Below, piece after piece: positions 1 through 58,293 of a DNA stretch of 60,862 nucleotides. The notes under the pieces were generated by a model. The model worked only from the letters and a program-made list of their open reading frames with translations. It did not search any database and was not told the DNA's origin. Positions within the stretch are counted from its first letter, which is position 1; each line of letters starts with the position of its first letter. Source of the stretch: Bacillus phage vB_BspP_Dartukuta; the sequence record MW749009.1. One strand, given 5' to 3'. Both the position numbers and the translations under genes were made by a program.

Positions 1-101
1 AGTTGCTTCATTCGGTTGTACTCGTCTATCTGTGGATGACTTGGTGCTATACCGGTGCTACATTTAGCACTTCTCAAATCTGTTTTAGCACCGGTGATGG
101 C

Positions 102-1205
102 ATGGGATCTATTTATACTAGGAAAAATCAGGATGGCACTAACAAGTTCACAGCGCAAATACGCATTAAGAGAAAGCAAAAAGTAGTCTATCAAGAGTCG
201 CAAACTTTTAATAAGAAGACAGTCGCGCAAGCATGGATGAAGAAGCGCGAAGCTGAGCTAGCTCTGCCAGGCGCACTGGACGCTATCATAAACAAGTCTG
301 ACGTAAATATCGCACAGATTATCGAGCGCTATTTAGATGAGTATGAAGCCGTCAGGCCGCTAGGTAGAACCAAGCGAGCAACACTGAAAGCAATCGCAAG
401 CACACCACTAGGCGAGGTCATGGCTGAGGACCTTACATCGCAGATCATAGTCGAGTACGCGCAGCACCGAATGAAGAACGATGGAGTGCAGGCCCAAACT
501 ATCGGCAACGACTTGGCGCACCTTGGCGCAGTGCTATCAGTAGCAAGGCCTGCATGGGGTTATGCGATTGACGGTATCGCAATGAAGGACGCCAGAACAG
601 TGCTAAAAAAGATGAACTTAATATCAAGTAGCAAAGAAAGGGACCGCAGACCAACCATCGAAGAGCTTGAGCTGATACTGAGCCATTATGACGACATGAA
701 AAAAAGGCGCAATCAAGAAATCGATATGTTTAAGATTGTTGGTTTTGCGCTATTCTCGACACGTCGCATGGATGAGATAACTCGGATCAAATGGGATCTG
801 GTAGATGAGGAGGGGCAAAGGGTTCTCATAAAGGATATGAAAAACCCCGGCAATAAATGGGGGAATGATATCTGGTGCTACGTGCCTGATGAGGCTTGGG
901 CAATTATGCAGTCGATACCTAGAAGCAAAGAAGGGCCGTTCCCGTACAATTCAAAATCTATTAGCTCGTCATTCACAAGGGCGTGCAAGTTTCTTCAGAT
1001 TGAAAACCTGCACTTCCATGACTTGAGGCATGAGGGTGTCACTAGATTATTCGAAATGGGCTGGGATATACCCAAAGTTGCTTCGGTATCAGGGCATCGC
1101 GACTGGAACTCAATGCGCAGATATACGCACTTGAGGGGCGTAGGTGATAGGTACGAGGGGTGGGAGTGGGTTAATCGGATGGTAGAAAGTAAGAGTATAC
1201 TCTAA
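102..1205 (+). CDS. int: Tyrosine-type site-specific recombinase (phage integrase)
   Basis: ORF track 3..1205; most plausible ATG at 102 (MGSIYTRK...). C-terminal catalytic signature HFHDLRHEG...GHRDWNSMRRYTHL (R/H-x-x-R...Y of tyrosine recombinases). Confidence 0.9.
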   Translation: MGSIYTRKNQDGTNKFTAQIRIKRKQKVVYQESQTFNKKTVAQAWMKKREAELALPGALDAIINKSDVNIAQIIERYLDEYEAVRPLGRTKRATLKAIASTPLGEVMAEDLTSQIIVEYAQHRMKNDGVQAQTIGNDLAHLGAVLSVARPAWGYAIDGIAMKDARTVLKKMNLISSSKERDRRPTIEELELILSHYDDMKKRRNQEIDMFKIVGFALFSTRRMDEITRIKWDLVDEEGQRVLIKDMKNPGNKWGNDIWCYVPDEAWAIMQSIPRSKEGPFPYNSKSISSSFTRACKFLQIENLHFHDLRHEGVTRLFEMGWDIPKVASVSGHRDWNSMRRYTHLRGVGDRYEGWEWVNRMVESKSIL

Positions 1206-1474
1206 GCGCGTTTTCTACCCCATAGACGTTCATGATCATCCTTAGCTGACTGGTGCTGCTTATCTAGGTAGGCGGCAAGATCACGAACATGCACGCCGCG
1301 CGCGGCCTGCCTGCTGCTATCCATCTGCACTAAAGGCAAGTCTATTTTGCCGTGCGCAATGTTTTGCCGCAGATTCTTTGGTGATAAGTGGCTGAAGTAG
1401 TCAGCACAAACAGTATCAACAGGAATGATTGCCTGGCCGTTGTATTGGGCCATTAGTAAAAACAAAGTATTCAT
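1202..1474 (-). CDS. PrtN-like small DNA-binding protein (possible excision or regulatory factor)
   Basis: 90-aa ORF abutting the int stop; N-terminus MNTLFLLMAQY... matches my memory of the PrtN (pyocin activator) family that often sits beside phage integrases. Not searched. Confidence 0.55.
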   Translation of the reverse strand: MNTLFLLMAQYNGQAIIPVDTVCADYFSHLSPKNLRQNIAHGKIDLPLVQMDSSRQAARGVHVRDLAAYLDKQHQSAKDDHERLWGRKRA

Positions 1475-1598
1475 TGGTTGCCTTTTTTAGTTAGTCTCTG
1501 CCGTTCAAGTAGCGCGCCGCATCGTTTGCACTGCTGCTTTTCAGTGGCGCACTGGTCGTTAGGCCGCCGCGTTTTGCGACAGATTACCTTGGTATTCA

Positions 1599-2360
1599 TT
1601 AAGACCCTGTGCTTCCAAAACCACTAGATCCGCGCTCTGTATCGCTAAGGTCTTTGCTCTCTTCAAAAAAAACACGCACCACAGGCTGTATGGCTGCCTG
1701 AGCAATGCGCTCACCTTTCTCTATCTCAAAGCCTGAGCTGCTTGAGTCAGTAACCAGCAAGACTTTAACTTCGCCTCGGTAGTCGTGGTCAATAGTCCCA
1801 GAAAAGGCATGCACACCATGATTGAAAGCCAAGCCTGATCGCGGGCGAATAACCATTTCATAACCTGGTGGAATCTCAACGGATATACCGGTGCTAACTA
1901 TTGCTCGACCGTAAAAACTTTGAGTATCTTCAAGAGCATATAGATCAAAGCAAGCCGCGCCGGCACTGCCGTATGTCGGAGTTTTAGCGTCTGGGTGTAA
2001 TTTCTTTAATTTGATTATCACTTTGCCACCTTGTTTTTCAGTTTCATTTTGTCTAGCAATTTGTCTAGCAATATCGTCGTAGACCTTCCCATCATTGCCG
2101 TTTTGCATTATCGGAATCATTCTTTCGTCTGCTGACGCCGGCCAGTTGCCCTGCCATGCTTCTGTTTCCAATGGCTTCTTTACTTCATCCATGATCTCGG
2201 AGAACTCGACCAGCGGTCTAACAAAGTGCTGCCCGAGCTCGTTGTGGTAAACAACAAAGCTGTCGTCACCACTGGTATTCAGCGATCCGCTGCCTCTTGC
2301 AATTGCATGGATGCGATACGATCCACCTTTACGTTTGTGTTTAAATTGTTTTGTTTGCAT
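1599..2360 (-). CDS. dut: dUTP diphosphatase (dUTPase) with ~110-aa N-terminal extension
   Basis: Motifs AGAACFDLYA, RPRSGLA and GTIDHDYRGEV in the C-terminal ~145 aa; the N-terminal ~110 aa is unassigned. Confidence 0.85.
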   Translation of the reverse strand: MQTKQFKHKRKGGSYRIHAIARGSGSLNTSGDDSFVVYHNELGQHFVRPLVEFSEIMDEVKKPLETEAWQGNWPASADERMIPIMQNGNDGKVYDDIARQIARQNETEKQGGKVIIKLKKLHPDAKTPTYGSAGAACFDLYALEDTQSFYGRAIVSTGISVEIPPGYEMVIRPRSGLAFNHGVHAFSGTIDHDYRGEVKVLLVTDSSSSGFEIEKGERIAQAAIQPVVRVFFEESKDLSDTERGSSGFGSTGS

Positions 2361-2885: not shown

Positions 2886-2933
2886 AATTCACCACTTACC
2901 GTATTTGTTTGAGCGTGACGCGAGCGCGTGACG

Positions 2934-3179
2934 TTATGAGAAAATTGTTTGTTTCTGCTCTGGCGTTAAGAACTTTGCACCATGGATCAGTCGAGTGATC
3001 ACGTCTTGCGGCTCGTCGATGCCAGTCTCGATCAAGAGCTGATCAAGAGCCTCGTTAGTGCTGTGAAAAAGCTGCAGCTTGATTGTCTTGGCTAGCAGTA
3101 CTGCCAGCCTTTCTTCTTCGCGCAGCTTGTCGCGCGCACGCTTTTCACGCATGCGCTCAGCTGCTGTTTTAGCTGCCAT
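2934..3179 (-). CDS. Hypothetical protein (81 aa), charged/helical
   Basis: ORF track; operon context only. Confidence 0.4.
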   Translation of the reverse strand: MAAKTAAERMREKRARDKLREEERLAVLLAKTIKLQLFHSTNEALDQLLIETGIDEPQDVITRLIHGAKFLTPEQKQTIFS

Positions 3180-3450
3180 GTTTTACAGCCTTGATTTTCA
3201 TGTAGACCCTGCGCCAAAAGACCTCTTTTCTATAGTGAAAACCGTATTTGTTATACAATAGAAATGCTCTGAGCGGTCCGACTACTTTGCTGAAGTCTAT
3301 AATATCAGTACCTGGCGGCATAAAGTTCCGAGCATCGTCCATATCCAAAGCCATGAGCCCTGTGTACCGCTGAATATGAAAACCAGATTGCATTTGCGAG
3401 CCAGATTTTTTAGTTAAAAAAATCCTAAAAAAATCCATTGGTATGGTCAT
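3169..3450 (-). CDS. Hypothetical protein (93 aa)
   Basis: ORF track; its ATG overlaps the stop of the small upstream ORF (ATGA). Confidence 0.4.
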   Translation of the reverse strand: MTIPMDFFRIFLTKKSGSQMQSGFHIQRYTGLMALDMDDARNFMPPGTDIIDFSKVVGPLRAFLLYNKYGFHYRKEVFWRRVYMKIKAVKHGS

Positions 3451-3569
3451 TTTTTAAAAACCTCGATAGTTCCAATTACTACAGCTGCAACAACCAAAAC
3501 TAAAGCTGGCTTTTTCTTGTCGTTTGCATCGTAAATTGCCGCAATTGCTAGCATGTAAAAAAACAGCAT
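3447..3569 (-). CDS. Small hydrophobic protein (40 aa), likely membrane peptide
   Basis: Below the 60-aa track cutoff. Translation MLFFYMLAIAAIYDANDKKKPALVLVVAAVVIGTIEVFKK; AGAGG Shine-Dalgarno 6 nt upstream of the ATG; stop overlaps the start of the next gene. Confidence 0.4.
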   Translation of the reverse strand: MLFFYMLAIAAIYDANDKKKPALVLVVAAVVIGTIEVFKK

Positions 3570-3621
3570 AGATACCTCTTACGCATGCGCTCAGCTACTG
3601 TTTTGTGTTTCATTGCTCTAC

Positions 3622-4131
3622 CTAAATAAGAAGCGCTCGTTTACCGCGGTATGGGTTATCGAACGGAATATCATCATCAAAGCTATCGTAATTAGGCTCT
3701 TGCTGCCCGCCCGCTTGAGCGTTAGCTTTAGGAGCAGGGCTACGCGCTGGCTGTTGAGTTCGCTGAGCGGGCGCGTCTGTATTGTCACTACGGCTATCAA
3801 GCATCTGCATAGTGCCGCCCATATCCACAATAACTTCCGTTGTGTAGCGCTTCACGCCGTCCTTTTCCCATTCACGGGTTTGTAATCGGCCCTCGATGTA
3901 AACCTTTGAGCCTTTGACAAGATACTGCCCAGCAATCTCTGCGATCTTCCCGAAAAGGGAAACACGGTGCCATTCGGTACGCTCCTGCATTTGACCGGAC
4001 TGTTTATCTTTCCAGCTATCGCTAGTGGCTAGCGTTAGGCTTGTAACTGCGTTGCCATTCGGCATGTAGCGGACTTCAGGATCACCGCCAACATTGCCAA
4101 TTAGAATTACTTTGTTTATTCCGCGCGCCAT
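3622..4131 (-). CDS. ssb: Single-stranded DNA-binding protein
   Basis: N-terminus [40 protein letters not shown] (OB fold), Gly/Gln-rich linker, acidic C-terminal tail DDDIPF. Confidence 0.95.
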
Positions 4132-4430
4132 TATTCAGCCCTTTGTTTGTGGTATGCAGATAGCGCTGAGCAGATATGGTCGTACAGCGTTTCTGACCGA
4201 CTAACGTGATTTGGAACCCATATCGTATCTGCGATTGCCGGATCGTCCGATTCAAGTACAGTCTTTACGACTTCTAGCGCGCTCTCTAGCTGAGCGGCTT
4301 GGGCTTGCATAACTTCGCAGTCTGCAATCAAATCAAGAATCATCTGCGCTCGCGGGTTTAGGCCGCCTTTTTCCGATGCTTCGCGTTTTAGCTCTTGCAT
4401 GCTGTCGCGCAATAACTGGTACTTGCTCAT
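4131..4430 (-). CDS. Hypothetical protein (99 aa)
   Basis: ORF track; operon context. Confidence 0.45.
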
Positions 4431-17244: not shown

Positions 17245-18516
17245 ATGCAGATCAGCTTAAACCTGCAGATACCGCACAAGCTCGCACCGCTTTACGAGCC
17301 GAAGCGATACAAAGTTATGCACGGTGGTCGTGGTGGTGGTAAGTCGCATTCTGTGGCTCAGGTGCTGCTTGACCTTGGTGCTCGGCAGCAGCTGCGTATC
17401 TTGTGTGCGCGTGAAATCCAGAAGTCAATGCGTGACTCAGTTCACCGCTTGCTCAAGGACTACATCATCAAGCTCGGGTTGACTGCATTTTATGAGATTA
17501 CTGATACCGAAATACGCGGCGTAAATGGCACGCTGTTCTTGTTCGCTGGCCTACAGGCGCACACAGTTGACTCAATCAAGTCATTCGAGGGTGTTGATAT
17601 TGTCTGGGTTGAAGAGGCGCACAGTGTTAGTAAGAAGTCGTGGGACGTACTAACACCGACCATTCGTAAAGAAGGTAGCGAAATATGGATGACGCTAAAC
17701 CCTGACATGGAGACGGACGAAACTTACGTTAGGTTTGTTGCTGCTGGCACCACTTCTGATACATGGGTTGCGGAAATCAACTGGCGCGATAACCCGTGGT
17801 TCCCAGTCGTACTGAATGAAGAGCGCAAGAAAGCCAAGCGCGAAATGAGTGCTGAAGACTACGAGCATATTTGGGAAGGAAAGGCGCGCACAGTTGCAGC
17901 CGGTGCCATATACCGTCACGAAATCATTGAGCTTGTTGCAGGTAAGCGGTTGCAGCGCATTCCGTATGACCCGCTTATGCCTGTTCACACTGTTTGGGAT
18001 TTAGGTTGGAACGACAGCATGACAATCCTGTTCGCGCAGAAAGGCCCAGCTGATATACGCATCATTGATTACATAGAGGAAAGCCATCGGACATTGGATT
18101 GGTACGTTCAACAGATAGAAAAAAGGCCATACAGATGGGGAGTTGACTATATCCCGCACGATGGGCGGACTAAAAACTTTCAAACAGGAAAAAGCACTGA
18201 AGAGCTGTTAAGGCAGATGGGCAGAAATCCTTTTGTACTCGCAGCAACTGGCATTGAAGAGGGCATTAAGGCAGTACGCATGATGTTTCCGCGCTGCTAC
18301 TTCGATGAAGACAAAACAAAACGGTTGGTTGAGTGTTTAAAGCGCTACAGCAGGCGCATACATGAAAAAACAGGCGAGCCAATGGGCCCATTGCATGATG
18401 AATACTCGCACGGCGCGGACGTGTTTAGATATTTAGGGCAAGCAGTGGAGTTGATGCGCAATGACATTGGACATACAGACTATCAAGAAGCACCCGCTGT
18501 GGACTGGCGCTTGTGA
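17245..18516 (+). CDS. Terminase large subunit (PBSX-type)
   Basis: Walker A HGGRGGGKSHSVAQ near the N-terminus, ...IVWVEEAHSVSKKSWDVLTPTIR... ATPase core; directly downstream of TerS. Confidence 0.9.
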   Translation: MQISLNLQIPHKLAPLYEPKRYKVMHGGRGGGKSHSVAQVLLDLGARQQLRILCAREIQKSMRDSVHRLLKDYIIKLGLTAFYEITDTEIRGVNGTLFLFAGLQAHTVDSIKSFEGVDIVWVEEAHSVSKKSWDVLTPTIRKEGSEIWMTLNPDMETDETYVRFVAAGTTSDTWVAEINWRDNPWFPVVLNEERKKAKREMSAEDYEHIWEGKARTVAAGAIYRHEIIELVAGKRLQRIPYDPLMPVHTVWDLGWNDSMTILFAQKGPADIRIIDYIEESHRTLDWYVQQIEKRPYRWGVDYIPHDGRTKNFQTGKSTEELLRQMGRNPFVLAATGIEEGIKAVRMMFPRCYFDEDKTKRLVECLKRYSRRIHEKTGEPMGPLHDEYSHGADVFRYLGQAVELMRNDIGHTDYQEAPAVDWRL

Positions 18517-42616: not shown

Positions 42617-45600
42617 ATGAGCTTTGAAGTTGATTTAGACAGCGCTGTTCTTGAGGGTGATTATTATGGAGATGATACTAGGGTCAAGCCTGAGAGCAGC
42701 AGTTCAGGCTTTAGCCCTGAAGCAGGTCCCGCAAAGCAGCCAGCTCCCTTTAGCGTTGACCTAGAAAGCGCTGAGCTAGACGAAAAAGCCAACCAGGGCT
42801 TTATTGGAACATTAGCTGACGGTGCAAAATCGGCAGGTAGAGCCATTAGCTCTACTTACAATACTTATACTGGCGATGGTCAAGCAGTTGTTGATAACGC
42901 CAAGGCTCAAGAACTGGCCAATGAAGATAAAAGCCAAGACATTAAAAACTTCCAGTCTGACTGGGCGGCAAATACGGGCGCAGGTACTGATGACGAAGTA
43001 GGCTTATGGGGTGCTATCAAAGGCACTGGAAAGGCAATTATTGATAACCCTCGTGGTGCCGCCCTTTCAGTAGTTGAGCAATTCCCTAATTCAGTTCCAG
43101 CACTGGCCGCAGGCTGGGCAGGCGCTAAAGGCGGCGCAATGGCAGGGGGCGCAGTCGGCTCGGCTTTTGGTGGTGTCGGCGCTGGGCCTGGCGCTTTAAT
43201 TGGTGGCGCCGCGGGGTTTGTTGGCGGCATGTTCCTCGGTAATACGTTGACCGAAACGGGCCATAAGGCGCAAGAGTACGCTGCCGATGGTGAGTTCACG
43301 CCAGATGAGCAGTCAGCAGCTATTACCGAGGGCGCGAAAAAAGCCGGTGTTATTACAGCCGTAGATGCGCTTACCTTTGCTGTCGGTGGCAAGGTTTCTG
43401 GATACTATCGGAAAACAGCAGAGTCAACAGTTGAGGCAGCTACTCGCAAAACACTGCTTGACGCTGGTGTTGATATTAGCGATACAGCAGCGCTTACTGC
43501 GGCAAGAGGTAGCCCACAAATTGCAAGCCAAGTTGTTGAAGCGCAGAAAAATGCGGCAAAGATTGCAGACAATCTACGCAAGCGCGCAGGCGAGGCAGGC
43601 GCGCTACTTACAATGGAAACAGTCGGCGAAGGCTTAGGTGAATACTTAGGCGAACTGGCAGCGACTGGACAAGCAAGCGTAGCAGAGGCCGTGCTAGAGA
43701 GCTTCTTGTCGCTAGGTCAGTCTGGCGTTCAGTCGATGTTTAACTTTGCCAAGGCGCGAGAGCGTTCGCTCACTGACCAAGAATGGATTGATGCGTCAAA
43801 CGGTATTGCGCCAGAAGGTATGGCACCAGAGCAAATGCCGGTTGCTGATGGTATATGGGATAAGCCAACTCCAGAAGCCAAGATCGACATGGGGCAGATG
43901 CAGGGTGGCGGCGTAACACCGACACCTGTATTTGACCCGCAAGACATTGATCGCAACCTTGCACCGACACCATCGCAGCAAATGGGAATTAACCCTGATG
44001 CTGGCCCACTTTCTGCTGCTGCAGCGCAGTCAGTTGATAGTGGCTTGTTTACAGGCGGGTTTACCCCACAAGCCGGAATTAACCAATCGGCACTTGAGCG
44101 CGAGGGCGTAACGCCGCCGCCAGTATTAGATACTGACCAGATTGACCGCAACTTAGGAAGTATTGATCCATTAACAGGTGAGTACATGCCTGCACCTGAG
44201 CAGTTAGGTCAGTCGAGTCAAGCGGGAGGCGCCGGTAATTATGAGTATGACCAATGGGGCAACCTAAGCAGCGTTGATGGCCGCACAGTAGATGGTTACG
44301 GTCAAAACCAACCACGCCTTGGTTTTAATAGTAAAGCCGAGCGCAGCACCGCGCCGTTATATGAAGTTGGGCCTGATGGTGTGGCGCGTCCATCTTCAGG
44401 AGAGGCGGCGCGGAGTAGAAAAGAACGTATTGACCTATCATCGCTGAAAGGTAGACAGCAAACCCAAGCGCAAAAACAGCCTGCTGCTATGCCAGAGCAG
44501 CGTAGTCCTGAACAGCAAGCGCAATCTATCTGGGATTCAATGAATACCTTTGAGCGTAACGCTGCAGCAGCAAATGTTCTTGGTATGCGCGGCGTACCGG
44601 CTAAGAATGCAGCCACAAAAGCATGGGATAAGCTAAGCTCTGAACAGCAGGCCAAGCTCGTAACTGGACTTGAGAGCCAGCAAGGGAAACGCTGGATAGA
44701 CCCTAATCAGAAAGTGACTGACCAAACTGGCCCTGTGCTACAAAACCGCGACCGCACAAGCCAAGACTCAATCAATCAGATGCGAAGCATCTCAAACAAT
44801 CCAGACTACAGCAGGTTAAAAACATCAGGCTTCTTGTCTGACGGTGCGCCTGTTGTTGTTGATGAGAATATTCAAATACCAGCGTCACAGATGGGCGTTA
44901 CTGATACTGCTTCTGCAGGAAACGAGCGCTTTAACGTGCAGTACGCAGTAGTTGAAGCCGACCAGTTAATGACCAGTAACAGCATTGACGGTACCACTAA
45001 CGCTGAATACCAGACAGGGGCTGCAGGTAAGGCTAGAGCAATTGCAGGTAATGGACGAATCACTGGCTTGCAATCAGCATGGGCTAAAGGCAACGCCAGC
45101 CAATACAAAGCCGATATGGCAGCCGATAGAATGCACGGCATTGACCCGGCCGTTATTGAAGGCATGCGCAATCCTGTTTTAGTCCGCTTATTGCCGCAGG
45201 ATCAGGTCACTGACAATATTGGCGACCTAAGCAACAGAGACGAGAAAGGCAGACTTTCGCCGGTCGAGCAAGCCAAAACAGATATGGGCCGCATTGACCT
45301 TGATAGCCTAAAGTTTACTGCTGAAGGTGCTATCGGTGGCGAAGCGATCCACCAGTTCCGCATGGCTCAACCTGCAGCTGAGCGCGTGAGTGAGGCAGAG
45401 GCACGGAAGCGACTGACTTCTGCTGTCTTCCAAAAGGCATACGGAAACGATCAGCTTACAGAAATCCAGTCTGGTGAAAGTGACGATGCCAAATCAATCT
45501 TATCAGCACTGGCACAAGCAGCCCCAAGCATGTCACGTCTTGAAGGAGCTGGTGAGTTTGATATTCGCCCACTAATCACGCAGGCAGGCATTGCGGCTGT

Positions 45601-48600
45601 AAACGCAGCGCGTAGAGGCACTAAACTTGCTGATTATGTTCAGCAGTCAGAAATGGGTATTGATCCAATGGTATACCCAATTCTGGAAATGATGCTGAAC
45701 GAGAATGGCAATATCCGTAGTAGCAAATACATCGGCGAACAGCTAACCAATATGGCAAAGTTGGCTTATGATGAAGCCAACTCACCTAGCTCAGATATGT
45801 TTGGCGAAAAACCCAAGCGTACAGCTGAGCAGGTTATTCAAGACGCGCTTACTGGAGTACAAGGTTATGGCCAAATCAATGACGGAAGAGGGCAAGAAAG
45901 TCTGGGGCAGCGAGGGCGGTCAGAACCTGATGCGCAAATGGTTGAAGGGCCAGAAGGCGGACGAGAGCGACCAGCAGACACTAGACAAACTGCACCAACT
46001 CAACCAGAAGCAGAGCAAGAACAACCCGCAGCAGTAGAAAGCAATGCGCCTGAAACATGGCGCAGTAACTACATTCAAGCCGCCAAGATTGCACGCGAAA
46101 AAGGCATTAATCCTAAGCAGCATAAAAAACTCGCTGACTTGGTTGAAGCTATTGATGCGTCAAACACTAAACCTGAAGCTCAAACACAGCTAACAGCACA
46201 ACAGAAGCAGGCTTCAGGCAGTGTAGATGGTGCAAAAGTCCATCTTAACAACAGCATTGACCTAACCAGCGCATTAGCTGCAATCGCACGCGGCGCACAA
46301 TTAAGCACCGAGCCAAACGGTGACGTTATTCTTAGTGGCACCAAGATAATTACGCTTCCAAAGCCGCCAACTTCTATTGATGAAGTTATTGCCCCGTTAG
46401 CCACAGCCTTACTAGAACAAATGCGAGCAGATGGCGTTTCTATGCCTGGCAACCCAGCGGACATGACGCGGGATCAGTTTGCTATTGCCTATCACTTTGC
46501 AAACATAATTCCAGAGTTTGAAATCAGCGGAGCAGATATTGGTGGCGTAGTCCAAGGATCAAGCCGTGGCTTAACAGTAGACTCAGACAAGCTATACGAC
46601 AAGATCATCGAGCAAGCCAAAGAGCAGGCTAAACCAGCCTTGGAGCTTAACCAGCAAACCGAAGAATCCTTAGCTAAAGATGCCAAACGATTAGAGCAGC
46701 TGCAGAAAGAAGAAGCTGCGCAGAAAGTCGCGCAGAAAGCTGCAGAAAGGAAACAGCGTGAGCGTGACGCAGACAAGGCCAGAGCGGACGAAGTGGTTGA
46801 TGACTTCCAGTTGGGGCAGTCTGCAGAAGAAGTAATGTCTGGCATGGGTGATATTTTTGCGACTGAGAGCAAGCCAGCAGATAAAGGCATTGCGTCTCAA
46901 GCCGATGACAGCCATGTCACAGTTGTTGATAACCAATACAACCCAAACCCTACAGAAGCGCAGAAGCAGGCTGGCAACTACAAGAAGGCTCACGTTAAAT
47001 TCCAAGGCCTTGATATCACAGTAGAGAATCCAGTCGGATCAGTGCGCAGTGGCGTAGATCCTGACGGCAATACTTGGTCAAATACTATAAAGCATGATTA
47101 CGGATACATTAAGCGCACTAAGGGCGCTGACGGCGACCATGTTGATGTGTTTATAGGTAAAGATACCGAAAGCGATAAGGTATTTGTAATTGATCAGCCG
47201 CACAAAAACGGTAAGTTCGACGAACACAAAATCATGCTCGGCTTTAAAGACCAGACGCAGGCCGTAGAAGCGTACAAAGGCAACTATCAGAAAGACTGGA
47301 AAGTTGGCTCTGTCACTGAAATGACTGTGGGCGAATTTAAGCAGTGGCTTAGCAATGGTGATACCACCAAACCGGTTGAGCCAGTCGCGAAGCCAGCAGC
47401 GCAAACAAAGCCAAGCCAAGCCATTGAGGACTTTGGTGAGAGGCTGGAAGGCGCACGCAAGGATTACGCCAGCAAACTATCTGACGCTAAAGAGGTAGAC
47501 ATTGCGACTGAGCCACTATCAAAGTCTTGGCCAGAGCCGAATTATCAGAAGTTGATTGACGGAGGAATGCCGCTAGAAACAGCAAGTATTGTTCGTGCTA
47601 TTCGTGATGAGATTCCAGTGAAGCCGCGCGCATCATGGCGACTGAAAGGATGGGTGCGACAAGTAAGCGAAATGCGTGATTTAGCCTTGAATTTGATGGG
47701 GGAAACAGCTACAGCTAAAGTGATTGTAGAGCAGATAAAATCTAATAAATCTTTATCAGACATAGTGAATCGTGCAGACCTGTACTCGGCAGTTGGGCAC
47801 GATAAAAGCCTAAAAGATATTAGTTTAAAACAAAGCTCTTACTCGTTGATTGATGGTGTTAAATACTCGCCACCGAAAGAGCTCTGGACGGTTGAAAGGC
47901 CGATTAAAAGCAGCGTAATAAGCAACATGCCCAGACGTATTGCGACAGCTGAAACAAGAGAGCAAGCGATTGCCAAATTCAAAAATGCGTATGCAACATT
48001 GGACGAAAGCAAACGTGTCAAGAACAAAGCAGTTGAGTTTGGGGTTTATACAGACAGAACCACAAAAGATGTTTTCATTGGCCGGAAGGTTGGCAAAAGT
48101 ATTGCTCGCGTAAAAACTGGATTCGAAACTGCTAAAGATGCAATTGCACACCTAAAGGAAAACTATGCTGCTCTTGAAGAGCGGTTTAACAAGATGAAGG
48201 ATACGCCCGATCATCGTAAGGCTGAAAACTCACCTAGAGTTGGCGTTGATCACCGAAATGGCGCGGATGTAACACCGGAGCAGTTCTCTGATACGTTCGG
48301 GTTCAGAGGGGTGCAGTTCGGTAACTATGTAGAGCAAGGACGTAGGCAGCAGGATCTAAATGAAGCCTATGATGCGCTTATGGACATGGCTGGCGTGTTA
48401 GGTATTCCAGCAAAATCTCTATCTTTAAATGGTGAGCTTGGACTAGCGTTTGGTGCTCGTGGTAAGGGTGGAAAACAAGCAGCTAAAGCGCATTATGAGC
48501 CAGATCAAATTGTTATTAACTTAACTAAGAAAAATGGCGCAGGCAGCCTTGCTCACGAATGGTGGCATGCGCTTGATAACTATTTTGGCCGCGAGCGTGG

Positions 48601-51600
48601 CGGTAAAAGCAATGAAATGTATGCCTCAGACAATCGAGCTCACGCGACAGTCAGACCTGAAATGGCAAAGGCTTATCGTGATATTGCAAGCGCAGTAAGC
48701 CGAACCAAGCTGAAGTTTCGTTCAGACAAGCTCGATAGAATGCGCACAAAACCATACTGGGGTACCGGTATAGAAATGACTGCGCGATCTTTCGAGAGCT
48801 ACGTTATTGAGAAGCTGCGTGATAGCGAGTTATCTAATGATTATTTAGCCAATATTGTTGGCGAAGATTACTGGAATGCTGCGGCAGCACTGGGCATTGA
48901 AAAGGATGGTACTTATCCGTATCCAGAGGCGGCTGAGATACCGGAAATCCGCGCTGCGTATGATAACTTTTTTAACACTCTAGAAACAAAGGAGGGTGAA
49001 GATGGCAATGTCCTGCTTTTTAGCTTTGCAGGCAAGACTGCTCGTGGCGCTGATCTTATGGCGCTGGATCAGGCTCAGTTGCGCATTGCTTCTGGTGACA
49101 ACGCCGAGACTGTACGCCAAGAAACAGGTTGGCACCGTGGCGATGATGGAAAGTGGCGCTTTGAGATCAGCGATGATCAAGCCAAGCTGCGCGTAGCTGG
49201 TAAAAATGCAGGTGAGCTTATTGACTCAGCCGCGCTTGACGCGATCACCGGTGGCCGCAAGTTCCCAGTGACTTCTGACCTGATCGACCACGCTCAACTA
49301 TTTGTTGCCTATCCTAAACTAAGCAATATCAAAGTAGAGAAAATGCCAGAAGGCGGTACCGCTCTAGCGCGATTAAAGCGCAGAGCTACAGGCTTCACTA
49401 TCCAGTTGCGCGATAACTTGCCACGCGAGAAAGTGGCGTCTGCAATCTTGCATGAGCTACAGCACGGCATTCAGGTTTACGAAGGCTTTGCCGTAGGCGG
49501 CTCTAAGAATATGGTCTTCAGTGATCTTGATATGAGTGGAGCCAAGGCGTATCGCGCACTTGCCGGTGAAGTGGAAGCGAGAAATACCCAAACACGCCAC
49601 TCTATGACGCCAGCTTTGCGCCGCAACATTGCGCCTGAGCTGACTCAGGACACGCCAAGTGCAGACGTGATCGTCACGTTCAACGGTAAGGACATTACCA
49701 ACAAGGCAATTCCTAATAACGTCAATAACGCGCCGATAACTGATGCCTCGCTGGTGCGAGCGTTCGATGTACAGTTCCCTCGGTTAACTAAAGCTGTGCG
49801 CACCATGCTTGCCCGTGGTAATAAGGGCGAGCGTGGTGGTGTGGTCGTGATTGATAGCGCTGATCCATTGATGATTGCCCGTGCGTTCGCCAAGAAAACA
49901 GGCAAGCCAATATCGCAGTCGGTGCAAATGTTCTCAGACGCTGGTGTGATCAATGGCTTCTTTGATCCTAAGTCTGGCCTTACCTTCCTTGTTGGTCCGA
50001 ACTTGAATCCAGTCACCGGCACAGCTGTTTTGCTTCACGAAATGATCCACGGTCAACAGCGCCAGAAGATCGACAAGGCCGCACTTGCCATGCTGATGAA
50101 TCGCGGCAAAGAGAAAAACGCAGAAACACGAGCGTTCCTTGATCGCGTAGCTGCTCGCATGGATGATGCTGGCGAAACAGCGAACGCACAAGAGGCAGGC
50201 GCTTACATTGTTGAGCAGGCCGTAATGGAAGGTAAGAGCGCTGGTTATGGCACTGCAGACAGCCGATTCCTTTCATGGGTAGACCAACATATTGGTAAGA
50301 CGGTAGGTGACTTCTTACGCTCGTTCATCGGTAATTTGCGCAGCTGGGCGCTGCGTAACGGCTTGCCTATTGGTCCGATTACTGTGGACGATCTTGTTAG
50401 CTACGCAATGGCAGGTATGAAGCAGGCTGGTCGCGGTAATGTTGATGGCGGTGCCGCTGGGTTCAGTCGTGACGCAACAGCTAGCCTAGAGGATGCTCTA
50501 GCGAAACTTGATGCGCTCGGCCTGAAGCATCGGATCAGCGAGCGCAACGATGTTATTACTGTGAGCAAGATTGAGGTGCCCGAGGGCGCTAGAGGTCAGG
50601 GCGCTGGATCATCGGCAATGCAAGCCCTGATCGACTACGCGGACGCCACTGGTAAGCACATTGCTTTAACACCAACAGCCGATTTTGGTGGTAACAAAGC
50701 AAGGCTTAAGGAGTTCTATCAGCGCTTTGGATTCAAGGAAAATAAGGGTAAAAACAAAGTTTACGAAGTCTCAGAAGGAATGGTTCGCGAAAATCCGAAT
50801 GGGCGCACCCTATATTCAAAGGGCATCACTGAAGATCTAGCAGAAGGCCAGCGGCAGTTTGCACAAACAGAAAATGCTTACGGTGGTCGTGCAGCCTACG
50901 ATCAGGCAAAATCAGAGGGCAAGACCAAGCTGAACTATCAGCAGTGGGTGCAGGTACGTACGCCTGCTTTTAAAAACTGGTTTGGGGATTGGGAAAATGA
51001 ATCAGAAAGAGTTGAGCGAAAAACAGAAAGAGTTCAGGAGGTGGCTGGACGAAACACTGCCAAACCCAACGCCAGAGCAACTCAGCCAGCTGGACGAGCG
51101 TGGCGACTGGATCCAGAAACCGGAGAGCCAAGAATCTTCTATCACGGAACCAAAGACAGCTTCACCGTCTTCGACCTAGATCACCAGAACAGAAAGGATC
51201 ACGGCTGGTTAGGTACAGGTATTTACACTGGAAGCGATAAACTTTTAGCAGAGTCATACGCAAGGCTGAAAGATGGCTCAGGTGAGCCGCGAGTTATGGA
51301 GTTTTTTGCAAATGTAAGGAACCCATATAAGGCTACTATAGAAGATAAGCAGCGGGGAAGATTTGCTGATAGAGCTTACGCCGACAGAGTTACAGAAAAG
51401 TTAAAAGAAGCTGGATACGACGGTGTAGTACTTCCGTTCGCAGATGGCAGTGTCGAGCTGGTGGCGTTTGATAAGCCGCAGATCAAATCAGCCACCGGCA
51501 ACGTCGGTACGTTTAGTGCAGACAATGATGATATACGATTTAGCTTTGCCGGCCAAAGGTCAGGAACAGCCGACCACTACTCATTAGGGTCAGCGCAGCA

Positions 51601-54600
51601 GCGCATTGAATCCGGCGAAAATGCAGAAGCGGTGCGTCAAGACACGGGCTGGCACAAAGGCATTGATGGCAAGTGGCGCTACGAAATTAGCGACCATGAC
51701 GCAAAACTACGCAAGCCATTTCCATCTAAGGGCCAGCTTTGGGGTGGAGTTTACGAAAGTGTCAACCAGTCCAAGGTGCAAAGAGGCGAGGGATACGGTA
51801 TCAGCCTAGGCGAAATACTGGATCACCCTGCACTATTTGCGGCATACCCGCATCTTGCAAGCCTATCTGTAAGCACGCAAAAGGGTAGCGGTGCGTCATA
51901 CGAGTCCGGCAGCCCTTCCAGTCCGGCATCTATCAGTATCGGCACCGATGTGCCAATGTATGACGTGCCAAGCAAGCTGCTGCACGAAATCCAGCACGGC
52001 ATTCAGAATATTGAAGGGTTTGCGCGTGGCGGCACTTTAGAAACGGGCGCTGGTTTGAGCAACCTTCATGCTCTACTTGAAAAGCAGAAGAATGAATTTG
52101 AAAACGAGCACGGGTTCAACGACTGGATTTTTGAACTAATACTGGAGCAGCCAAAACGACATAAAGCCTTGATGGACGAGGGCGCAAAAGATGGGTATTC
52201 ACTCCGTTCGCTATATCAGTCTTTTGCTAGTGAGAAGCTATCAGAAGAAGATCGCGGATATTTCGTATCGAGGATGCTGGGTTATGAAGATAAACTAAGA
52301 AAAGTCGCGCTTTCAAAGCACATAACTCCGAGCGAGTTCTATCAACGATTAGCAGGCGAAGTTGAAGCCCGCAACACCCAGATCCGCCATAAGATGACGG
52401 CTGAACAGCGCAAAAGCACACCGCCAAGCGCAACGCAAGATGTATCCGATGCCGATGCCATTGTCATGTTCAACGGAACGGAAATGCACAACGCGCCCGC
52501 ACCGGCAAACACCGGCACAAGCGACATTCGCTTCAGCCGCTCAGCTAACCCAGCTTCAATAAGCGCGGCACCAAACGGAATGGCAGCTTGGGATAGCCCT
52601 TCGGCATCGAAGTTCGATGACTTTGTTTACAAGATGCAAGATAAGCACGTTGATACAAAGCGCGTGATTGAAGCTATCCGCGACACAGGTAAGGCAATCA
52701 GCGATGACCTAGACGTATACCTGCAAGAAACATTGTTTCATGGGCGAGCAGCTAAGCGCACGCAAGACTTCTTAAACAAGGAAGTAAACCCGCTTATTGA
52801 GTACATGCAAAGCGCCAAGGTTGAAATGAGCGATCTTGAAGAGTTCTTGCACGCACGACACGCACAGGAAGCTAACGCGCTGATTGCTAAGCGCGATCCT
52901 AATATGCCTGATGGTGGGTCAGGTATGACAAACGCTGAGGCCGCAAAATACCTTAATTCGCTAAATGGCGTTCGACGTAAGCAATTAGAGAACGCTGCAA
53001 AGTTTGTCGATAAGATTATCGGTGGAACACGAGAAACCATTGTTAGCTATGGCCTTGAAAGCCAAGAAACGGTTGATGGCTGGACAGCCGGATTCAAGCA
53101 TTACATTCCGCTGCAGCGTGAAGATAAAGACGGCCAGATGGGTATTGGCCAAGGCTTCAGCGTTAAAGGAAAAGAGACTAAAGGACGCACAGGCTCAACA
53201 CGTAAGGTTGTTGATATTCTGGCCAACGTGATGATGCAGCGTGAGCGCGCCATTGTTCGTGGTGAGAAAAACCGAGTAGCAGTTGCATTGCTAGGACTCG
53301 CTAAAGATAACCCGCTACCTGAGTTCTGGCAGGTTGATAAAGTTCCGACAACACGGGTGCTTGATAAAGTAACAGGCTTGGTACGCAACCAAGCGGACCC
53401 TATGTACAAGAGTAGAGACAACGCTATTGTAGCTAAGGTAAACGGCCAAGAGCATGCGATCCTGATGAACGAAGACGACCCACGCGCAATGCGCATGGCC
53501 GAGGCTTTAAAGAATCTTGATGCGGCACATCTGGAAGGGTTGTTAGGTGCTACAGCCACTGCGACACGATACTTTGCAGCAGTGAATACGCAGTACAACC
53601 CGATATTTGGCGTAACAAACTTTGTTCGCGATATTCAAGAAGCCATGCTTCACTTACAAAGCACGCCACTAGCAGGGCAGCAGTCGCGCTTGTTCAAAAA
53701 TACATTCACCGCAGTTGGCGCGGTAATGAAAGCAGAGCGCGACGGCAGAAAAGGAAATAATGCAACAGGGAAGTGGGGCGTTTTATGGGAAGACTTTCAG
53801 AATACCGGTGGGCAGACTGGCTTCAGGGATCAGTTCAGCAATAGCGCAGATCGCGGCAAAGAGATCCAGCGAGCTTTAACACCGGATGGCTGGGCGGAAA
53901 CAGGCTTAGGCAAGTTCTTTACCGCCAATGGAGCACTTAAAGCACCGCTCGAAGTAGTGCGCAAAAAAGCGGCATGGCTGTTTGATCTGCTATCTGATTA
54001 CAACACGGCAATGGAAAACGGCGTGCGATTATCTGCTTATGAGACTGGGATTAACGCTGGCATGAGCAAAGAGCAGGCGGCAGCACTGGCCAAGGGATTG
54101 ACCGTTAACTTTAATCGAAAAGGCCAAGTTACCCAGCAAGTCGGCGCGCTCTATGCGTTCTTCAATGCGAGCGTGCAAGGTACTGCTCGATTAGGTCAGT
54201 CGCTGTTTGATATGGATGCTGGCAAGCCTAAAACGCTACGCCTATCGTCTCTAGGGAAGAAAATCGTATCAGGCGGCGTTATGCTGGGCGCGTCTCAGGC
54301 TGTACTGCTAGCGATGGCTGGCTTTGATGATGAAGAGCCGCCTGAGTTTATCCGTGAGCGCAACATCATCATACCGACGGGCGGAAAAACCTATATCAGC
54401 ATACCAATGCCGCTTGGCTATCACGTTATCGCAAACCTTGGCCGTATACCGATGGAGTTTGTTCTTGGTGGTGGAAAAGATGGCGCTAAGCACCTGTTTA
54501 ACCTAATGGACGTAATGGCAGACATTTACAATCCAATCGGTAACTCAGGCTTATCCATGCAAACAATCGCGCCTACTGTGCTCGATCCGCTTGCTGGCCT

Positions 54601-55301: not shown

Positions 55302-56174
55302 TTACTGCCCTACACAGCTGTAATGATTAATCCGAAGCTTGCGCTGGTAGTCGTCTAAGGCTTGCGCGTAGGTTTTGACTAGCTGGTTTGCATGGCGGTT
55401 ACCATCCAGAATATGGTCAATCATTTCAATGCCAGCACGTGAGCCTAGGGCTTTCAGTGATTCATACATATTGTACTTGTTAAAAATATCGTACAGATGA
55501 TTCATGTGATTGCTCAGCAGGTAAACCTTATACAGGTCGTCTTCGGTCATGACGCCGTTAGGTTCCTCTTTGCCAAGAAACTCACCCTCAAGAGTTATGC
55601 GAGCCACTAAGCTGACTGCATCACTAAATTGGTCTGACTCAATCTCTTTGTATGAGCAACCAAACTTGGATTTGAGTGCTGACCAGCAAGTGATGGCTGC
55701 TTTGGCCTGTTTGCTTGGTGGCAGAGTTTCAACACGGGACTTTACTAAATCTTTGATGATGGATTGCTGCTCGATGGTGAGTGGAGTTCGGAGTGTTTTT
55801 TGAGCACGATGGTTAACAGCTTCGCCTTGCTGCCAGTAGTTGGCCAAGACCTGATAGCACTCACGCTTGTACTGAATCAGCGCAGGCCGGATCTCTTCGC
55901 GACAACGGCTCACATCAATGCCGAACAGCCAGCCGTTTAGGTATTCGAGTGGGAGACAGAGAAGTTCACGCTGTTTATTATCTTCGGCAACTGTATTCAT
56001 CATGAATACGGTTGAGCCTAAAACCTCGTCACGCATGATTCGGTTACGCTGTGAGCCCCACGCCAAACCGATGCCTTCGCAAACTGGACGCATAGCAACG
56101 AGCTGCTGATTATTATGGGTTATGACAGTAAGAGTGTGGTTGTGAAACTGGACTGAAGCAACTTGAGTTTTCAT
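55302..56174 (-). CDS. Phage antirepressor (Ant-like N-terminal domain)
   Basis: ORF track 55302..56183 begins on GTG; ATG at 56174. N-terminus VQFHNHTLTVITHNNQQLVAMRPVCEGIGLAWGSQ resembles the P22 Ant N-terminal domain (from memory). Confidence 0.6.
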   Translation of the reverse strand: MKTQVASVQFHNHTLTVITHNNQQLVAMRPVCEGIGLAWGSQRNRIMRDEVLGSTVFMMNTVAEDNKQRELLCLPLEYLNGWLFGIDVSRCREEIRPALIQYKRECYQVLANYWQQGEAVNHRAQKTLRTPLTIEQQSIIKDLVKSRVETLPPSKQAKAAITCWSALKSKFGCSYKEIESDQFSDAVSLVARITLEGEFLGKEEPNGVMTEDDLYKVYLLSNHMNHLYDIFNKYNMYESLKALGSRAGIEMIDHILDGNRHANQLVKTYAQALDDYQRKLRINHYSCVGQ

Positions 56175-56194
56175 AGTGAGCACCTTTCAGATTT

Positions 56195-56420
56195 GAGAGG
56201 TTCACCACCGAAGCGACCAAGCAAGGGTGGCGAACTGTACGCAGGTTGGTCGACCGGGCGAAAGGACCCCGGCACACCCGAAGGTGTCCCACGCACAGCC
56301 CGCCATAACGCGGGCACAAAAAAACCGCTGATGCGGCGTTGTGCGCCTTTCAAGTTCCGGGCGACCAAACCCGTATCGCTGAATTTGCAGCGACGCGGGA
56401 AAGGTAGCCTGAAAATAGCA
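56195..56420. ncRNA. GC-rich structured non-coding region; candidate regulatory RNA upstream of ant
   Basis: Several short GC stems with 4-nt loops (CCGGG..CCCGG, ACACC-CGAA-GGTGT, GCCCGC-cataac-GCGGGC); only short overlapping ORFs in several frames on both strands; GC visibly higher than the flanks. Strand and family undetermined. Confidence 0.3.
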
Positions 56421-56523: not shown

Positions 56524-56886
56524 GTGGTAAACACTAAAGCGCTTGTATGCGCAGCAATTATGTCTACAGGGTTATTATTACCAGCCACTGGTAGTGCCTA
56601 TACAGGTAATGATTTAGATATGTGGTTATCTTCACATGCTAGGGTAGTTAGTGGTACAGGAAATGCTAAGGACTTAGAAAACTTAGATTTTCTTACGGGG
56701 TATGTGGCTGGCACGTATGACGCACTTGATGTGACAGGGAATCTGTGCGCGCCAAATAATGTGACTTTATCTCAGATGATAGCGGCGGTGAGTAAAGAGC
56801 ATAAGAACAGCCCTGAAAAGTGGACTGAAAATGCTCGCGGTATTGTGATTGTCGGCTTGGTCAGATCTTTCCCCTGTGGTAAATGA
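56524..56886 (+). CDS. Secreted hypothetical protein (120 aa) with N-terminal signal peptide
   Basis: GTG start with AAGGA upstream; hydrophobic N-terminus ALVCAAIMSTGLLLPATGSA, then Cys-containing mature region. Confidence 0.5.
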   Translation: MVNTKALVCAAIMSTGLLLPATGSAYTGNDLDMWLSSHARVVSGTGNAKDLENLDFLTGYVAGTYDALDVTGNLCAPNNVTLSQMIAAVSKEHKNSPEKWTENARGIVIVGLVRSFPCGK

Positions 56887-56998: not shown

Positions 56999-57820
56999 TT
57001 ATTGAATTGAAGAAACGCACTGGCCTTTGATGTAAACGAATAGTGATCGACCGTCATTTAAGCTGTACACCCATTGCTCTGTGCCGACTATCAGCGAGTT
57101 AACTGATGATGGGGAGCCAATAGCGCTTCGCACCTCGCTACTGGTCATACCTTGCCATATTTCTTTTTGGCCTATTCTCACTATTCCTCGTTTGGGCTTT
57201 CGAGCAGTGCAAGCTTCGCGGCTACCATCTTGTGGGCGCGGGTCATTCATCTTGTTCTCGATTTGCTTGAGTCGTCTGTCGAGAGGGCTCTGGTTAGGAT
57301 TGTAATGCACTTCGCGATCATTTATTTCAGGAAGAGCATAATCAGGCTGGGAAGAAGTTGTCGCCCTTGGTGATGAAGTTAGGCCAACTTCTCTGGCTTC
57401 ACGGCGCAGGCGAACAGCGCGAGCTGCTTGGCTTTCGCGGCTTGAATCGTGAACTACCGTCACACCGCTAGGGTTTTCCTTACGTTTCCTGGCTATAGCT
57501 TCTTCCTTTTCCCGCAAGCGGCGGTTGATTAGGCCGCCAAGGGTAGAAGGGTCTTCTGCACGAGGATCTGGCACGACAGTGACCTTCATTGTTGAGCTAG
57601 AAGGATTGCTGCGAGCATATTCAATTTCTCTGACCTGCTCTGGAGTCGCGAATGTTCCTATCTGATTGGTTTGAGTGTTAACTATCTCGGACACACCTTC
57701 AGGTGTTGTACAAGGCACGTTTGCGAAGCTCACTTTTCCGTCAGGGCTTATGCACTTATAGACTTGACTATAGGCGAGTACTGGGGTCATAAAAACAGCA
57801 AGCATGACGTAATTCCACAT
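56999..57820 (-). CDS. Secreted protein with DUF4124-like N-terminal domain (~274 aa)
   Basis: ORF track 56999..57868; ATG at 57820 with AGGAG upstream; signal peptide MWNYVMLAVFMTPVLAYS then QVYKCISPDGKVSFANVPC; Ser/Arg-rich middle. Confidence 0.5.
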   Translation of the reverse strand: MWNYVMLAVFMTPVLAYSQVYKCISPDGKVSFANVPCTTPEGVSEIVNTQTNQIGTFATPEQVREIEYARSNPSSSTMKVTVVPDPRAEDPSTLGGLINRRLREKEEAIARKRKENPSGVTVVHDSSRESQAARAVRLRREAREVGLTSSPRATTSSQPDYALPEINDREVHYNPNQSPLDRRLKQIENKMNDPRPQDGSREACTARKPKRGIVRIGQKEIWQGMTSSEVRSAIGSPSSVNSLIVGTEQWVYSLNDGRSLFVYIKGQCVSSIQ

Positions 57821-57908
57821 AGCATTTCTCCTGAAAATTCCTTGTGTTGTTTTATAAGCTGCAAGCAAAAAACCTAATATATCAAAGCATCCGGCAGATT
57901 ACCTTAGT

Positions 57909-57981: not shown

Positions 57982-58293
57982 ATGTCTGACGATGTTAAGA
58001 ACGCTATAGGCCAGTTTGCAGCGTGGTTTGCTGGTGCTATCGGAGTCATCAGCCTTGAAATGTGGCTGGCAATCGCAGGTCTTGTCATCTCAGGCTTTAT
58101 GGCTTGGACCAATTACAGGTCGCGAGAGATTCAAGATCGCTTATTGCTCGAAGAAGCGATGCGCAGCGTAGAGTTGCATGACCTTGAAATGCGGCGTATC
58201 AGGGCAGCGATAGATATTCCGCCAGCGGTAAATCGACCAGTTGTAAAAGAGCTTGTAAAAGAATCTGCAACAGCGAAGTGCCGTGATGAGTAA
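57982..58293 (+). CDS. Putative holin / pinholin (103 aa, two TM segments)
   Basis: Two hydrophobic helices (FAAWFAGAIGVISL, WLAIAGLVISGFMAW) and a charged C-terminus; immediately upstream of the SAR endolysin. Confidence 0.5.
   Translation: MSDDVKNAIGQFAAWFAGAIGVISLEMWLAIAGLVISGFMAWTNYRSREIQDRLLLEEAMRSVELHDLEMRRIRAAIDIPPAVNRPVVKELVKESATAKCRDE

Follow-up and report, generated by a model that had tools for sequence, protein, structure and literature searches.

The 60,862-nucleotide (nt) genome of Bacillus phage vB_BspP_Dartukuta (GenBank: MW749009.1), analysed here over its whole length and referred to below as the window, carries a 40-codon open reading frame (ORF), orf40, on the minus strand behind its ssb gene. 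An initial annotation made from the letters alone had listed orf40, together with two further short frames of 52 and 55 amino acids (aa; orf52 and orf55), as small hydrophobic genes that a 60-aa ORF cutoff had missed. The features at the orf40 locus, some of them annotated coding sequences (CDSs) and some identified here, are as follows.

2934..3179, minus strand: orf81 (81 aa, phrog_4093), the conserved right-hand anchor of a variable segment, with the second copy of a repeat at its 5' end (3147-3170)
3169..3450, minus strand: the 93-aa ORF (DARTUKUTA_8), a GenBank CDS and the variable cargo gene downstream of orf40
3447..3450, minus strand: ATGA stop/start overlap, formed by the TGA of orf40 and the ATG of the 93-aa ORF
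3447..3569, minus strand: orf40 (DARTUKUTA_9), gene for a 40-aa hydrophobic protein with two predicted helices, identified by its ORF, homologues, codon score and GenBank CDS
3548..3613, minus strand: a 21-codon upstream ORF (uORF; MKHKTVAERMRKRYLCCFFTC, then a stop) with an orf81-type 5' end, which overlaps the orf40 start in a different frame
3557..3563, minus strand: a T7 run in codons F3-F4-Y5 of orf40, where a −1 slip would join the uORF and orf40 frames
3575..3580, minus strand: the orf40 Shine-Dalgarno AAGAGG, 5 nt ahead of the ATG
3581..3623, minus strand: an apparent recombination scar, a 43-nt copy of an orf81-type ribosome-binding site, ATG and first 11 codons, recognised by homology to orf81 5' ends
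3622..4131, minus strand: ssb, the left-hand neighbour of orf40 in most contexts

Re-reading of the sequence returned the same coordinates and 40-aa length for orf40 as the initial annotation, with the ATG at 3567-3569 and the translation MLFFYMLAIAAIYDANDKKKPALVLVVAAVVIGTIEVFKK; the good Shine-Dalgarno and the ATGA overlap with the next gene that had been described are both present. The three frames count as missed only with respect to the 60-aa cutoff of that annotation itself, since an exact-sequence look-up found orf40 in GenBank as DARTUKUTA_9 (QXN70863.1, "hypothetical protein") and orf55 is likewise an existing CDS. The codon-usage log-odds of orf40 ranked first among the 140 ATG-ORFs of 35-60 aa in the window. 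Furthermore, a scan of the gaps between gene-like ORFs for Shine-Dalgarno-preceded small ORFs with a coding score of at least 0 returned orf40, orf52, orf55 and a 57-aa CsrA gene, besides internal-start sub-ORFs of larger genes and one 22-aa antisense TTG ORF inside orf55.

Homologues were sought in 5.8 billion protein clusters, which yielded six orf40 clusters of 38-40 aa with 84-90% identity, and by a full hidden Markov model (HMM) search over 1.84 billion representatives, which added only two distant relatives (P0017 and P0018). The HMM matches P0015 and P0016, with many matched stretches in proteins of >1000 aa, were set aside and excluded from the relatives. The orf40 frame is intact in nine metagenome variants (51-90% aa identity, 38-40 aa), none of which contains an internal stop or frameshift, and an additional 52-aa chimeric form is also in frame. 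No other frame is open across all variants. When the DNA was aligned with its flanks, high conservation extended from CTATG, 2 nt before the ATG, to AATGAC, which is exactly the extent of the ORF; outside this block the downstream genes are unrelated and the upstream sequence is divergent. Despite this divergent context, each short-form variant has GAGG, AAGG or AAGAGG 5-9 nt upstream, and the chimeric form has a Shine-Dalgarno at its own start.

The variable columns number 10, 7 and 17 at codon positions 1, 2 and 3, and the pooled ratio of non-synonymous to synonymous variation (pN/pS) is 0.30. Minimal changes comprised 21 synonymous vs 20 non-synonymous ones at an expected synonymous fraction of 0.22 (p = 3e-5), and the same test in frames 1 and 2 was not significant (p ≈ 0.2). 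The close homologues in this comparison are only 8-17% diverged. The homologue in contig L023, with 62% nt and 51% aa identity, encodes 39 aa, follows ssb, ends in a TGATG stop/start overlap and specifies the Phe-Phe of orf40 with a synonymous TTC. Conservation of the frame in relatives had been proposed as the check on the initial annotation, and for orf40 it was borne out by the nine variants free of stops and frameshifts and by the frame-specific synonymous excess. Judged from these alignments, orf40 is very probably a translated gene under selection.

The surroundings of orf40 change from contig to contig. Its homologues lie on the same strand and, in most contigs, directly after ssb; the exceptions upstream are an 87-aa gene in L004-6 and another small hydrophobic ORF in L021/22. 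The following gene is the 93-aa ORF here, which had no family match, and in relatives a 101-aa gene, Sequestin (PF21825), Phage_gp49_66 or an HU-like gene. Sequestin is a sponge for 3'-cyclic ADP-ribose (3'cADPR; bioRxiv 10.1101/2025.07.12.664507), and this known anti-Thoeris sponge occupies the slot behind orf40 in some relatives. Stop/start overlaps of the ATGA, TAATG or TGATG type were seen with four different downstream genes, arguing for translational coupling of orf40 to whichever gene follows it. This arrangement indicates that orf40 travels as an independent mosaic module that heads a segment in which the following genes are swapped.

The predicted product has a grand average of hydropathy (GRAVY) of +1.11 and consists of two unbroken hydrophobic stretches, residues 1-13 and 22-38, around a polar turn, IYDAxDKxK; the charged parts are cationic and lie at the turn and the C-terminus. 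Ten alignment columns are invariant even when the most divergent forms are included (L2, I12, Y13, D14, A15, K18, K20, G33, E36 and F38). AlphaFold, run with a 9-sequence alignment, placed helices at residues 2-17 and 21-39 with a mean predicted local distance difference test score (pLDDT) of 77, and the summed Hessa ΔG was −1.45 for helix 1 (13 residues) and −0.2 for helix 2 (22-38, 17 aa). As far as the model and the hydrophobicity can tell, the product most likely sits in the cytoplasmic membrane of the host as a helical hairpin. The membrane-like character attributed to all three small ORFs was supported for orf40, by hydrophobicity and the modelled hairpin, and for orf52, by hydrophobicity, but is wrong for orf55, whose GRAVY is −1.11.

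The genome has the layout of a lambdoid temperate phage, with these landmarks.

3-1205, plus strand: integrase
11639-12277, minus strand: CI-type repressor
12380-12577, plus strand: cro
57982-58293: holin-like gene of the lysis cassette
58283-58828: lysozyme gene of the lysis cassette

A long leftward operon includes a RecT-like gene, a large putative recombination nuclease, ssb and dUTPase, and a rightward operon includes an O-like replication gene, NinB, a YbcO-type nuclease, RusA and terminase. The early-operon placement given to the small genes holds in a divided form: orf40 is in the leftward recombination operon, and orf52 and orf55 are in the rightward replication/nin-type operon. A simple consensus scan, which can miss weak promoters, found no promoter-like site on either strand in 2900-4200; accordingly, we expect orf40 to be expressed from the operon, on the long leftward early transcript. 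It would then be silent in the lysogen, barring an overlooked promoter, and reading from that transcript suggests that it acts in early lytic growth and not in prophage-expressed exclusion. In the mechanism that we propose, orf40 would be made straight after ssb as part of the CI-controlled early operon and translated from its own Shine-Dalgarno, with ribosomes handed to the next gene through the ATGA overlap; early in lytic growth its product would bind an integral-membrane component of the host, as small exclusion or take-over proteins do, and would not form pores. That orf40 may bind such a component for exclusion or take-over is put forward tentatively, on the strength of analogy.

The analogy is with PfsE (PA0721) of the Pseudomonas filamentous phage Pf4, a 30-residue inner-membrane protein with a conserved short motif, which binds the integral-membrane protein PilC and so blocks type IV pili and superinfection (PMC8764522). 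Both are very small phage proteins, it is the PfsE type of mechanism that is proposed for orf40, and the closest characterised relatives of the window are Pseudomonas F116-like phages. However, PfsE has one helix and a YxWGW motif, whereas orf40 has two helices, the IYDAxDKxK turn and a G33/E36/F38 motif; YxWGW does not occur in orf40, the two share no sequence similarity, and they differ in phage type and genomic position. A second candidate for comparison was lambda CIII, an FtsH inhibitor encoded beside ea10/ssb in the leftward early operon as a 54-aa amphipathic, largely soluble peptide. orf40 resembles it in being small and in lying next to an ssb-type gene in a CI-controlled leftward early operon, but it had no Pfam match at E ≤ 1 and is evenly hydrophobic instead of amphipathic. 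Searches of PHROGs and Pfam (both at E ≤ 1), NCBIfam, PADLOC and PDB sequences, and Foldseek against the PDB, likewise gave no meaningful match for orf40, and nothing homologous to it turned up among toxin, exclusion, holin or defence families.

The same peptide could instead damage the membrane, as a host-killing, type-I-toxin-like or holin-like factor; host killing or exclusion is what the initial annotation had expected of small membrane peptides in early operons. Type I toxins (Hok/Gef, TisB, Fst, Ldr) are hydrophobic peptides of <60 aa, charged at their ends, whose target is the cytoplasmic membrane, and small size, hydrophobicity and positive charge are common to the Hok, TisB and Fst types. 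The size of orf40, its hydropathy and its cationic turn and C-terminus agree with such an activity. The toxins, however, form separate loci, each with its promoter, structured 5' untranslated region (UTR) and antisense RNA, whereas orf40 is an operon gene with a strong Shine-Dalgarno and stop/start coupling in place of a repressed 5' UTR, and is not an independent unit. An Rfam scan around orf40 gave nothing beyond noise, antisense RNA families included, a terminator scan was likewise empty, and no antisense small RNA with a promoter was found in 2900-4200. Moreover, two short helices are predicted rather than a single long span, and PADLOC, Pfam and NCBIfam hold no match. As for a holin, the lysis cassette lies elsewhere (57982-58828), so that orf40 stands in the recombination/ssb operon and not beside the endolysin. 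We regard a membrane-damaging peptide as unlikely.

An adaptor ORF, which would only load ribosomes onto the cargo gene behind an invariant AAATGAC junction and encode a functionless peptide, would account for that junction: none of the eight short-form homologues aligned or listed departs from AATGAC, the downstream gene changes in nearly every context, and stop/start overlaps persist even in the distant L023. The amino acids themselves are nevertheless under purifying selection, as seen from the pN/pS, the synonymous excess and the ten invariant columns, and in L002, L003 and L011 orf40 is kept although the next gene begins 32 nt further on. Coupling is dispensable there and the ORF is retained, indicating that orf40 is not merely a coupling device, and we consider the adaptor quite improbable.

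The DNA between ssb and orf40 has the appearance of a recombination scar or module-exchange linker. It is homologous to the orf81 5' ends of L001, L002, L003, L011 and L023, and the orf81 protein begins MKPKTSAERMREKR... in relatives. Within it, the 24-mer 3581-3604 matches 3147-3170 at 23/24 positions (2 matches, vs 0 in 100 shuffles), and this 24-nt direct repeat, with copies 434 nt apart, brackets the pair formed by orf40 and the 93-aa ORF. The scar accounts for the 21-codon uORF ahead of orf40 and for 12 additional residues of SSB (3625-3660, minus strand) after DDDIPF, a motif that normally stands at the very C-terminal end and forms the partner-binding tip. SSB of L001, L002, L008, L010 and L023 ends at IPF, and the extra residues may alter or abolish canonical SSB-tail interactions.

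In L021 and L022 an orf81-type fragment is fused in frame to orf40, giving the 52-aa form MTTKTPAQLMRKRF-LWYAVLAIEAIYD... We rejected this long form as the ancestral orf40, because its N-terminus copies the 5' end of the neighbouring 81-aa gene, i.e. it is a chimera. Just upstream of it, and coupled by ATGA, lies a 42-aa hydrophobic ORF, MIDKLKS.AFFVMLLAGVMGLSLWIGVGIGHGIVTGMRWAL (L021 218-346 and L022 223-351, plus strand), indicating that small membrane ORFs cluster in this region.

The uORF also allows a product of ~55 aa to be envisaged, in which ribosomes slipping by −1 on the U7 run (3557-3563) would pass from the uORF, with its orf81-type ribosome-binding site and ATG, into the orf40 frame; such a trans-frame product would contain a peptide across ...RYLCCFFYMLAI... 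The heptamer reads T TTT TTT in the uORF frame, shifting by −1 there leads exactly into the orf40 frame, and the hypothetical fusion aligns with the 52-aa form that L021 and L022 encode in a single frame. However, orf40 has its own Shine-Dalgarno and ATG, conserved across all short forms, and the upstream frame is absent in L001, L002, L008, L010 and L023, while in L004 it has a TAG and no start codon. The T7 run, invariant in the close homologues, simply encodes Phe-Phe and is interrupted in L023 by the synonymous TTC, and the uORF is already explained by the scar. Frameshifting of this kind is highly improbable.

The second small gene, orf52, lies in the rightward operon with these features.

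15318..15491, plus strand: a cassette of ~172 nt (Shine-Dalgarno and orf52), an insertion relative to L013, L016 and L017, with GTATG at both junctions (boundaries ±3 nt)
15339..15497, plus strand: orf52, a 52-aa hydrophobic ORF apparently unannotated in GenBank
15494..15520, plus strand: a vestigial YbcO C-terminus (MSIVEVKA, then a stop) left behind the insert, with GTGA coupling to a 70-aa gene at 15517

Its coordinates and its hydrophobicity (GRAVY +1.28) agreed with the initial annotation, and its start codon overlaps the YbcO-type nuclease stop codon as ATGA. The exact sequence has no NCBI accession and is known only from metagenome assemblies, with six Logan/ENA contigs carrying it; accession numbering from the YbcO-type gene to terminase leaves no slot for it, and orf52 thus seems to be unannotated in GenBank. 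In the close relatives L013, L016 and L017 the YbcO-type gene is followed directly by the 70-aa gene, and alignment shows a clean insertion of the cassette here. The same cassette stands in L012 behind an unrelated 251-aa HNH gene, coupled by GTGA. The two copies of orf52 differ by 2 mismatches/159 nt, namely the start ATG to GTG and one Leu to Ile; similarity stops 21 nt upstream, and the flanks beyond are unrelated. No frame of the cassette is open except orf52. Its codon score is unremarkable (23rd percentile of the 140 ATG-ORFs), and neither orf52 nor orf55 had a meaningful match in PHROGs or Pfam (both at E ≤ 1), NCBIfam or PADLOC or anything but noise in tblastn against GenBank phages.

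That orf52 is a real small gene is therefore backed by presence and absence of the cassette, not by divergence, and this structural evidence is good support for a mobile small gene, as far as the alignments reach. Illegitimate recombination at GTATG would have brought the cassette into the YbcO-type nuclease gene at its 3' end. In lambdoid phages, classical morons are prophage-expressed genes with a promoter and a terminator of their own. Like a moron, orf52 is a discrete addition that separates two genes found side by side in relatives, with a near-identical copy in another context; unlike one, it has no promoter-like site in 12300-15800 and is spliced into the operon by ATGA/GTGA coupling.

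The third gene, orf55, precedes the replication gene.

12595..12625, no strand assigned: a GC-rich hairpin between cro and orf55, with a T6 tail on the minus strand (ΔG −19.9)
12651..12818, plus strand: orf55 (DARTUKUTA_27, QXN70880.1), 55 aa and hydrophilic, between cro and the O-like replication gene

Here the coordinates and the length were right and only the hydrophobic character, as noted above, was not. GenBank lists orf55 as a "hypothetical protein". AGAGAGG stands 5 nt before the ATG, the 3' end overlaps the O-like replication gene by 16 nt, and the codon score ranks 5th among the 140 ATG-ORFs. Members of seven homologue clusters (82-95% identity) always directly precede the same 332-aa replication gene and overlap it by 16 nt, while the immunity regions differ among these contexts. 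The frame is conserved, with moderate evidence: the seven clusters, one variant with an in-frame 3-nt insertion, and 16 synonymous vs 22 non-synonymous changes (p = 0.004, in frame 0 only). On this sequence evidence, orf55 is probably a real gene for a soluble protein tied to replication or its control.

Calls of 88 aa for orf55 homologues were rejected as over-extensions through the hairpin, the window having a TAG at 12627-12629. The hairpin with its minus-strand T6 tail was likened to the lambda oop terminator. Position after cro and the hairpin had also raised lambda cII as an analogue of orf55, and this too was rejected, since F116 has no such gene and orf55 has no match to a helix-turn-helix family; F116 lacks orf55. 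In 12715-12800, the C-terminal half of orf55, there were 3 synonymous changes vs about 9 expected by comparison with the adjacent replication gene, and a minus-strand promoter-like site at 12648-12676, the only one found near orf55, is weak. An antisense RNA or another nucleotide-level constraint is possible at orf55.

That all three ORFs are chance frames, conserved through a non-coding DNA or RNA element or recent common ancestry, can appeal to the many spurious frames among the 140 ATG-ORFs of the window, to the shallow divergence of the close orf40 homologues and the near absence of it in orf52, and to the few synonymous changes in the C-terminal half of orf55, but it is exceedingly unlikely given the frame-specific substitutions, conserved Shine-Dalgarno, coincidence of block edges with the ORF, same-length homologue at 62% nt identity and lack of an Rfam match for orf40, the frame-specific synonymous excess and in-frame indel of orf55, and the orf52 cassette, whose edges are those of the Shine-Dalgarno and ORF and whose frame is re-coupled (ATGA vs GTGA) to two different upstream genes.

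We hold to the reading in which the three ORFs are real genes and orf40, a mosaic module, encodes a probable membrane hairpin that may bind a host integral-membrane component early in lytic growth, and consider it probable as a whole. Several observations weigh against it. Helix 1 of orf40 has only 13 hydrophobic residues, which is short for a membrane span, and all polar segments are cationic, which leaves the topology ambiguous. No characterised protein is homologous to orf40. In GenBank phages and E. coli genomes, 3100-3700 had no match by blastn or megablast, tblastn of orf40 against GenBank phages gave nothing at E ≤ 10, and no relatives came from IMG/VR, queried with the 93-aa neighbour and the orf40 alignment, or from GTDB genomes, queried with the orf40 alignment. 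With neither a characterised homologue nor relatives in these databases, the functional part of the reading is pure analogy. For the other two genes, orf52 shows almost no divergence (one non-synonymous change) and an average codon score, and the C-terminal half of orf55 is nearly invariant in DNA, where non-coding constraint is possible.

A bolder version would make orf40 the founding member of an unnamed family of ~40-residue membrane hairpins, the constant first gene of a variable accessory and anti-defence island behind ssb in F116-like temperate phages, whose cargo includes Sequestin, HU-like, gp49_66 and Lar-like genes; the hairpin would then act early on a membrane complex of the host, in counter-defence or superinfection exclusion. 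A still more exotic variant would have this phage make the 55-aa trans-frame form as well, through −1 slippage on the U7 run. We think this version improbable as it stands.

Several other observations concern the genome around these genes. Its nearest characterised phages are the Pseudomonas F116-like podoviruses, with terminase 76.5% and replication protein 57-59% identical. The gene content of the whole window (e.g. 56524-56886, 56999-57868, 17245-18516) is Gram-negative in type, as seen in CsrA, the YbcO/NinB/RusA set and the F116-like terminase and replication proteins, and further in a Rap1a type VI secretion system (T6SS) immunity protein and a DUF4124/BamE-like protein; the "Bacillus" host assignment in GenBank looks doubtful. 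Two more ORFs fall under the 60-aa cutoff. The CsrA/RsmA homologue at 10703-10876 (minus strand; 57 aa, PF02599, E = 6e-25) recurs in L014, L016, L018 and L019, and a 42-aa Cys-rich ORF at 1471-1599 (minus strand; MNTKVICRKTRRPNDQCATEKQQCKRCG...), between dUTPase and a xis-like gene, is likely a further gene, overlapping its upstream neighbour by TAATG and its downstream one by ATGA.

The early-left region also contains a tRNA-Arg(TCT) at 9883-9959 (minus strand). At 55302-56407 (minus strand), Rfam models for C4 antisense RNA, its a1/b1 targets and isrK matched above gathering scores directly upstream of a P22_AR-type antirepressor gene, an arrangement suggestive of an ant module under RNA control in the style of P1/P7, although the genome is otherwise lambdoid and F116-like. 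A TnpB/IS605 OrfB-type gene with a Cas12f1-like TNB domain lies near the right genome end (59445-60542, minus strand). A single ORF of 4203 aa fills 42617-55228 (plus strand); its L001 counterpart has 3437 aa with ddrB-ParB and LPD domains, and the product is probably a giant polyvalent or injected protein.

The finding is an ordinary one, in that three small genes were confirmed of which two had been annotated before, and its practical value is modest: an improved annotation and three candidates for functional screens. The analysis adds comparative evidence of selection on a 40-codon ORF, the motif of its family and its place as a mosaic module heading a variable region, together with one apparently unannotated 52-codon cassette in a deposited genome and the removal of the 55-aa ORF from the membrane peptides. 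Length cutoffs routinely lose small membrane proteins, and some of these, such as PfsE, control superinfection and host physiology.

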